64,000 nt of DNA from the sequence record PQ724393.1, one strand, 5' to 3'. Shown here piece after piece: positions 13,953-14,153 of this stretch (position 1 is the stretch's first letter; each line of letters starts with the position of its first letter). Below the pieces are notes generated by a model, which was not told the DNA's origin, searched no databases, and saw nothing but the letters and a program-made list of their open reading frames with translations. Both the position numbers and the translations under genes were made by a program. The DNA comes from a phage.

Positions 13953-14153
13953 ATGGGTAGTATTTTTTACCAAATCTGGAAATTGGCCGAAAAGAAAGAC
14001 AAGAAAATGATGTTAGGTTTTCTTGCGCTAGACGTATTCCTTTGGAATCTTTTAGTAGTCCCTGTAGCCGCTAGCCAAGGGATAATTTTACCAGCGGTTA
14101 CAATGGAACACGTATTAAGCATAATTGGATTCTTTAGCGGAGTTCCTGCCTAA
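13953..14153 (+). CDS. small hydrophobic membrane protein (66 aa), opposite strand
   Basis: Plus-strand ORF in an intergenic gap; AGGAGG 5 nt upstream of ATG; predicted TM segments; stop converges on primase stop. Confidence 0.4.
   Translation: MGSIFYQIWKLAEKKDKKMMLGFLALDVFLWNLLVVPVAASQGIILPAVTMEHVLSIIGFFSGVPA

Follow-up and report, generated by a model that had tools for sequence, protein, structure and literature searches.

The lysis system of bacteriophage T4, which comprises T, E, the spanins, RI, and RIII, is usually regarded as fully catalogued. The holin T, the antiholin RI, and the spanins PseT.3/PseT.2 are small- to medium-sized inner membrane proteins that are made late and act on the envelope. 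The T4 reference record (NC_000866.4) places the end of dam at 17625 and the beginning of gene 61, which encodes the DNA primase, at 17935, with no annotated feature in the 310-bp gap that separates them. The R. capsulatus gene transfer agent needs rcc00556, the founding member of the holin family PF11351 (GTA_holin_3TM), both for lysis and for its release (PMC5026251). Here, we describe a small open reading frame (ORF) next to the primase gene, at 13953 to 14153 on the plus strand of a 64,000-nucleotide (nt) stretch of the phage record PQ724393.1. This stretch is called the window below, and all coordinates are window positions unless another record is named. Our best overall explanation, to which we give a probability of roughly 55%, is that the ORF encodes a late membrane protein of the dam.1 family that is related to holins and acts as an accessory to lysis. 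Part of the picture was already known: an identical hypothetical protein has been deposited, the family has a PHROG number, and the gene itself is ordinary. What is new here is a conserved putative late promoter, a prediction of the topology, the finding that the T4 reference omits the gene, and the remote link to 3TM holins.

A conserved gene facing the primase gene

The ORF reads from an ATG to a TAA and encodes 66 amino acids (aa) (MGSIFYQIWKLAEKKDKKMMLGFLALDVFLWNLLVVPVAASQGIILPAVTMEHVLSIIGFFSGVPA). The initial annotation of this interval had placed it, with a consensus AGGAGG Shine-Dalgarno (SD) sequence, inside a minus-strand block and with a stop codon that overlaps that of the primase gene, and this description is borne out. 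The SD sequence lies at 13942 to 13947 (+), 5 nt before the ATG, and each of the 14 lineages whose upstream regions were compared has a GGAG core resembling an SD sequence. From 6 to 24 kb, the window is tiled by minus-strand ORFs, and each plus-strand ORF of at least 90 aa there overlaps a minus-strand gene. The convergent neighbor is gene 61 (58-61), encoding a DNA primase of 342 aa (14150 to 15178, minus strand), and the two stop codons, TAA for the ORF (14151 to 14153) and TAG for the primase gene (complement of 14150 to 14152), form a 4-nt overlap, CTAA (14150 to 14153). Composition alone makes such an ORF unlikely, an argument that does not settle the matter by itself: 33 of 5,000 dinucleotide-preserving shuffles of the 294-nt interval produced a complete ATG ORF with 66 codons or more, a chance of about 0.007.

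The locus is widespread among T4-type phages. A megablast search with positions 13300 to 15200 matched 708 phage records, the best being Escherichia phage fDHCT2 (99.7%), followed by JS98-like phages (Dhakavirus) at 92 to 95%, and the annotations beneath the match were gp56 dCTPase, hypothetical protein, and gp61 DNA primase; by sequence, the window is that of a Dhakavirus (JS98-like). The ORF protein is 100% identical to the annotated hypothetical protein WG01_29 and matches phrog_2024 ("unknown function") with an E value of 5.8e-28, residues 1 to 64 aligning with positions 1 to 64 of the 65 in the profile. The same profile was matched by all 15 diverse members tested, T4 dam.1 among them. 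A tblastn search with the window protein found close relatives in 139 phage records, and one with the T4 protein found a T4-type copy in 698; a search for related loci from the single window protein added none beyond close relatives already known from these comparisons. In every locus examined, the homolog is on the plus strand and adjoins the 3' end of the primase gene, so that the conservation in relatives by which the initial annotation had proposed to check the gene extends, on the same strand and in the same place, to at least nine genera. The synteny was seen in Dhakavirus (WG01, JS98, and PSD2002), Marfavirus (Marfa and F48), Gaprivervirus (VR7, VR26, and ECML-359), Kanagawavirus (Q7622, Entb_45, and PEi20), Mosugukvirus (PM2), Gelderlandvirus (CGG4-1), Moonvirus (Moon), Mosigvirus (JK36), and Tequatrovirus. 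Many records annotate the homolog as a hypothetical protein, while the curated JS98 and JS10 records carry no annotation for it.

The forward frame was the only one free of internal stops in 18 of 18 homologs, each of the other five frames having stops. An antisense ORF of 51 aa (13967 to 14122, minus strand) was considered as a coding frame and rejected, as most homologs have internal stops in that frame. Nei-Gojobori counts were used to estimate selection. Between Entb_45 and PEi20, 20.5 of 44.3 synonymous sites and 5.5 of 138.7 nonsynonymous sites differ, giving a ratio of nonsynonymous to synonymous rates (dN/dS) of 0.06, and between Marfa and F48 the corresponding counts are 19.0 of 44.2 and 17.0 of 153.8 (dN/dS of 0.19). 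For the window and PSD2002 (31.7 of 41.2 synonymous and 14.3 of 156.8 nonsynonymous sites), dS is saturated and dN/dS is not estimable. Across pairs, the estimable values range from 0.06 to 0.55, and the pooled differences at codon positions 1, 2, and 3 are 739, 357, and 1,342. As a substitution pattern, this is the signature of a translated gene under purifying selection, and the comparison points almost with certainty to a real protein-coding gene, the Dhakavirus member of the dam.1/phrog_2024 family.

The alternative that the ORF is an unexpressed chance open frame in a promoter-rich, AT-rich spacer, propagated by gene callers as a "hypothetical protein," draws on its short length, the lack of a Pfam match, the lack of experimental evidence in the literature searched, and its absence from the curated JS98, JS10, and T4 reference records, as well as on a frameshifted copy in ESCO10 and an altered C terminus in VR7. 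This is hard to reconcile with the low shuffle probability, a frame open in all 18 homologs and kept in at least nine genera, dN far below dS, the conserved SD sequence and late-promoter motif, and distant homologs in unrelated phage types. We regard this explanation as effectively refuted by the comparative data and give it very little weight. The initial annotation's proposal of a real plus-strand gene for a small membrane protein is thus upheld by conservation, purifying selection, the SD sequence, the late-promoter motif, and a predicted transmembrane (TM) helix.

The counterpart in T4

T4 itself carries a homolog in the unannotated gap between dam and gene 61, at 17738 to 17938 (+) of NC_000866.4, which also encodes 66 aa (MVQKLMALVNAIKGNKKRIAFTISTMVGILLWNFILSPVAIAHGVNIPVVTLDTFVDLAFALVGLI). 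The arrangement of ATAAATATTAATTTAA followed by AGGAGG is shared with the window, the upstream sequences are nearly alike (GATAAATATTAATTTAAAGGAGG in T4 and AATAAATATTAATTTAACAGGAGG in the window), and the stop codon overlaps that of the primase gene in a TTAA. The record of T4T (HM137666.1) names this homolog "dam.1: hypothetical protein," and the VR7 record describes its own copy (gp033) as "similar to RB32 ORF030w." It had been noted initially that dam holds this position in T4 and is absent here. The absence stands, as T4 Dam had no match anywhere in the 64-kb window by tblastn (best E value of 0.8), and T4 does have dam; the implication that the ORF takes the place of dam is not supported, and the T4 comparison is to that extent wrong: T4 also has a homolog of the ORF in the gap between dam and gene 61. 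It is therefore dam that is simply missing between gene 56 and the small gene in the window, and the small gene is a conserved T4-type feature.

The window protein and T4 dam.1 (RB32 ORF030w and VR7 gp033) share membership in phrog_2024, a family length of 61 to 74 aa, the plus-strand position against the 3' end of the primase gene with overlapping stops, the upstream ATAAATA and AGGAGG, and an invariant W-N...P...G...P core. They differ in subtype, the window protein belonging to a subtype "B" (MG[ST]IFYQIWKL...LALDVFLWNLL...EH..SI) and T4 dam.1 to a subtype "A," and their identity is only about 20% overall and 40% over a 25-residue core. Purifying selection clearly acts on this gene across the subfamily, yet the NC_000866.4, JS98, and JS10 records leave it out, and it is invisible to omics studies built on those annotations.

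A conserved late-promoter motif

A feature that was not part of the initial account of the ORF is a T4-type late-promoter-like element, AATAAATA, at 13924 to 13931 (+), which corresponds to the consensus TATAAATA at positions -13 to -6. It predicts a plus-strand transcription start at about 13937 to 13938 and a leader of about 16 nt with a strong SD sequence. Nolan et al. (2006, PMC1524935) report that position -13 of T4-like late promoters commonly holds A or T and that its T is weakly conserved, which makes AATAAATA an accepted variant. Among the 14 lineages, 12 have an ATAAATA that ends 13 to 21 nt before the ATG of the first copy of the gene, and the other two have ATTAAATA; the perfect octamer TATAAATA is found in 5 of the 14. 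The flanks of the motif cannot be aligned between genera, and the background chance of the heptamer falling in such a placement window is about 0.008 per locus. On both strands of the 64-kb window, ATAAATA occurs 8 times against 26.8 ± 4.5 expected, an approximately 3-fold depletion of the kind expected of a sequence that acts as a promoter and consistent with selection against stray late promoters in the early/middle region. As a positive control, the same scan returned TATAAATA directly upstream of soc both in the window (13331 to 13338, minus strand) and in T4. A second plus-strand ATAAATA (17129) was considered as a promoter and judged incidental, as no plus-strand ORF lies downstream.

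Together, these motifs make it probable that the gene is transcribed late by the gp55-directed RNA polymerase, and a late promoter of its own would explain why the ORF is oriented against its early/middle neighbors. The closest parallel is soc, which in T4 is likewise a late-promoter-driven gene among early/middle genes and less than 1 kb from gene 56. Unlike the ORF, soc is on the same strand as its early neighbors and encodes a soluble capsid decoration protein, and the two show no sequence similarity.

With this conserved putative promoter, the locus would gain a late transcription unit running head-on toward the primase gene. No intrinsic terminator-like site was found in 13600 to 14600, nor was there a stable hairpin at the convergent junction (folding z-scores of +0.79 and +0.58 against shuffled sequence, one per strand), so that a late transcript of the plus strand could continue into gene 61 in antisense. 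This opens the explanation that the function lies at the RNA level, with the late transcript damping the primase through the 3' end of gene 61 and the peptide being secondary. The missing terminator and hairpin fit such a role, as does the convergent stop overlap, which is conserved from T4 to Dhakavirus and is present in its 4-nt form in WG01, Marfa, Moon, Entb_45, and JK36 as well. What an antisense role would not require is strong purifying selection on the amino acids with saturated synonymous sites. Moreover, the stop overlap is not obligatory: the ORF is intact in PSD2002, where a homing-endonuclease gene of 756 bp (locus coordinates 1708 to 2463) splits it from the primase gene, in CGG4-1, which lacks the overlap, and in the upstream tandem copy of Gaprivervirus. 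The antisense and protein roles could coexist, and gene 61 may be subject to an antisense effect, but such an effect cannot account for the conservation of the amino acid sequence, and as the main function we consider it improbable.

The predicted protein

The hydrophobic segments mentioned in the initial annotation resolve into one predicted TM helix, found by both hydropathy and AlphaFold2, at codons 19 to 41 (MMLGFLALDVFLWNLLVVPVAAS; 14007 to 14075, plus strand), where the Kyte-Doolittle average over 19 residues reaches its maximum of 2.05 at residues 20 to 38. All five Lys residues lie in residues 10 to 18, on the N-terminal side of the helix, and the last 22 residues are moderately hydrophobic (mean of 1.45) and include E52 and H53. 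AlphaFold2, run with a 30-sequence alignment, predicted helices at residues 2 to 14, 17 to 41, and 51 to 62 with a loop at 42 to 50; the mean predicted local distance difference test score (pLDDT) was 70.6, and that of the central helix was 79 to 83. The product is thus very probably an inner membrane protein. By the positive-inside rule, its N terminus is likely to be cytoplasmic, followed by one span and a short C-terminal helix that is outside or at the interface.

The TM helix carries W31, N32, and P37, which are invariant in the family alignment, and G43, P47, V49, and G63 are conserved in at least 90% of the members. The most conserved core, W-N-x4-P-x-A-x3-G-x3-P-x-V, spans codons 31 to 49 (14043 to 14099, plus strand). 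In membrane helices, a centrally placed, invariant Asn typically mediates association between helices, and the same may apply here. Scans of the window protein against Pfam and NCBIfam gave no family match, the sole match, SspI with an E value of 0.12, being dismissed. Compared with viral predicted structures, the AlphaFold2 model matched only family members (E values of about 0.01 to 0.03), the remainder being nonsignificant.

Distant relatives and a probable link to PF11351 holins

Searched exhaustively with the family profile, 1.84 billion cluster representatives yielded 22 clusters only, all of proteins of 45 to 99 aa. The distant clusters come from siphovirus-type contigs and from widespread Enterobacteriaceae prophages, one of them (P0146) being listed on 941 contigs, and these relatives are located downstream of a tail-tip protein. 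In five of seven siphophage or prophage contexts, a T4-type lysozyme (PF00959) without an N-terminal membrane segment lies within about 2 kb, and the dam.1-like protein is the only membrane protein nearby save one that has an N-terminal TM helix and a coiled coil and that looks, from this architecture, like an i-spanin.

It is through these relatives that the family connects to holins. Three distant members matched PF11351 below the threshold (E values of 0.03 to 0.07, with 14 to 15 bits against a cutoff of 24.8), and three matched phrog_3427, annotated "holin," with E values of 5e-4 to 2e-3. A tblastn search of phages with a prophage protein (P0134) returned T4-type copies together with gp44 of Roseobacter phage CRP-125, which is a bona fide member of both PF11351 (E value of 1.9e-15) and phrog_3427 (E value of 3.7e-28). 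In its T7-like genome, the gp44 gene directly precedes the gene for maturase A, which is where T7 has holin gene 17.5. In profile-profile comparisons, the T4-like family matched the distant relatives at 98.8% (E value of 6e-17), and the distant relatives matched an alignment of nine sequences around gp44 at 95.1% (3e-8). The merged family matched the same alignment at 92.8% (4e-7) and the T4-like family alone at 57% (1e-4). One alignment register was kept throughout, and when the holin alignment was reversed, or its columns shuffled in 30 controls, the probability never exceeded 0.7%.

The alignment covers only holin positions of about 65 to 123, that is, the C-terminal membrane domain, in which an aromatic residue of the first helix, Pro, Gly, Pro, an acidic residue, and a C-terminal Gly align between the family and the PF11351/phrog_3427 holins such as CRP-125 gp44 and rcc00556; the segment of the window protein that aligns is its conserved core. 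Late expression is expected for both groups, and the siphophage and prophage relatives of the window protein lie near soluble endolysins. These holins also have an amphipathic N-terminal domain of about 60 residues and a W-R-P motif, neither of which the window protein contains. We consider it likely, from the profile comparisons, that the dam.1 family and the PF11351 holins are homologous and share ancestry. The "Holin" label that one family member, OE5505, has in UniProt was taken to be automatic and was not used as evidence.

The siphophage and prophage relatives belong to a recurring module that consists of a GIY-YIG or endonuclease-VII-like gene, the dam.1-like membrane protein, a homologous protein of about 180 to 196 aa, and a protein of about 105 aa. 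The module is usually found beside a soluble T4-type lysozyme and downstream of the tail-tip gene, and the partner proteins (about 185 and 105 aa) have no homolog in the window. KAP NTPase, DUF3800, and EcoRII neighbors in prophage contexts raised a role in a defense system, which was set aside for lack of PADLOC support: PADLOC gave no match for the window protein, T4 dam.1, P0146, or the two partner proteins.

Proposed role in lysis

In the explanation that we favor, the gp55-directed RNA polymerase would transcribe the gene only late, from AATAAATA 21 nt upstream of the ATG. The product would have a basic amphipathic N terminus in the cytoplasm, one TM helix with the Trp-Asn pair and Pro, a G-x3-P-x-V turn, and a C-terminal helix that is periplasmic or interfacial, and the family would be remotely related, in miniaturized form, to the C-terminal membrane domain of the "3TM" holins (PF11351, equal to phrog_3427). 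Late in infection, the protein may oligomerize in the inner membrane or pair with another membrane protein through the polar Asn and so contribute to membrane permeabilization or to the timing of lysis, as an accessory to holin T and not as a self-sufficient holin.

Several observations weigh against this explanation. Neither the window protein nor any of 30 T4-like members taken singly matched PF11351, and since the T4-like profile alone reached only 57% against the holin alignment, the link to holins is transitive. The PF11351 holins are about 130 to 150 aa long with three membrane segments, whereas the window protein has 66 aa, one clear TM helix, and a C-terminal helix of 12 residues, and the confidence of the AlphaFold2 model is moderate (mean pLDDT of 70.6). 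No lysis cassette is present at the window locus or at any T4-type locus, the neighbors being gene 56 (or dam, or homing endonucleases) and the primase gene. T4 without a functional t gene does not lyse, and dam.1 therefore cannot be a sufficient holin. The conserved siphophage partners are nonmembrane proteins and not lysis proteins, and in one bacterial context (L021) the module is found without phage or lysis genes and has a KAP NTPase and an EcoRII-like restriction-modification system as neighbors. Finally, searches of the literature on dam.1, on ribosome profiling and small proteins in T4, and on T4 transcription start site mapping found no experimental work on this locus.

An alternative is that the gene encodes a real late membrane protein whose job is unrelated to lysis, such as modulation of host membrane proteins, anchoring of assembly, or superinfection exclusion, the likeness to holins then reflecting the shared ancestry of a helix module. 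The T4-type gene is fixed beside the primase gene and never lies beside e, t, or the spanin genes, its profile alone matches the holin alignment weakly, and the relatives keep nonlysis partners or, in L021, defense-like neighbors. The lysis set of T4 is, in addition, already complete. Other points fit a job outside lysis less well: late timing agrees poorly with superinfection exclusion, as the T4 genes imm and sp are early, no PADLOC match was found, and the holins are the only functionally annotated family with statistically supported similarity. We see this as the most serious competitor, with a probability of about one in three in our estimation. 

No similarity was detected between the window protein and T4 holin T, antiholin RI, Imm, Sp, or the spanins, and phrog_2024 was its only PHROG match at E values of up to 1; T, RI, and PseT.3/PseT.2 are also encoded at a different genomic location. 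Taken as a claim of its own, a lysis-related function in T4-type phages is possible but doubtful on the present comparisons. Still more tentative is the specific proposal that dam.1 is a second, overlooked holin-family gene of T4, a late miniaturized descendant of the 3TM (GTA-type) holins that would act in lysis control by tuning holin T or by depolarizing the membrane. If this is true, the classical picture of T4 lysis lacks a conserved component, one for which the reference annotation has no entry. The holin link and the endolysin-adjacent relatives give this previously anonymous ORF a place in a hypothesis on T4 lysis control, one that is cheap to test.

Variation at the locus and neighboring features

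The small gene can have a homing-endonuclease gene inserted on either flank; in IME08, VR5, and AnYang, the coordinates place mobE between gene 56 and the small gene. The PSD2002 copy is synonymously saturated relative to other Dhakaviruses, which suggests import by recombination. In Gaprivervirus, two paralogous copies stand in tandem, a T4-like subtype first and a window-like subtype second (VR7 locus, 1295 to 1770; VR26 locus, 1295 to 1701). No separate late-promoter motif precedes the second copy, which in VR7 has an altered C terminus and reads 24 codons into the primase gene. The tblastn match in VR20 is in two pieces. In ESCO10 (locus coordinates 1500 to 1698), a one-base deletion in an A-run (GAAAAGAAGAC versus GAAAAGAAAGAC) puts the first 16 codons out of frame, which is either a sequencing error or a pseudogene that possibly restarts at Met19. 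Some homologs are mislabeled, as "DNA packaging ATPase" in VAC36 and SAKp28, "dCTP pyrophosphatase" in CGG4-1 and dhaeg, and "thymidylate synthase" in phage 04086.

Upstream of the primase gene, a perfect TATAAATA followed by AGGAG lies at 15392 to 15399 (minus strand), 13 nt before the start of 61.1 (15378). From this motif, 61.1 and perhaps the primase gene would be transcribed late, head-on against the transcript of the small gene. T4 has no such motif upstream of 61.1.

The divergent neighbor is gene 56, encoding a dCTPase/dUTPase (13341 to 13862, minus strand). Its start is most likely the ATG at 13862 rather than the TTG at 13880, because the product then begins MAHFNE... as in T4 gp56. 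The gap of 270 bp between genes 56 and 61 that was given in the initial annotation agrees with the TTG start (269 nt) and lengthens to 287 nt with the likelier ATG. A putative, middle-promoter-like element of gene 56 was read by eye at 13900 to 13926 (minus strand), with a MotA-box-like ATTCGCTTTA (13926 to 13917) compared with the MotA-box consensus of T4 middle promoters, an 11-nt spacer, and a TATAAT (13905 to 13900). It overlaps the plus-strand late-promoter motif by 3 bp, back to back. In T4, the corresponding gene 56 transcript primes the origin oriA, according to a feature note in NC_000866.4.

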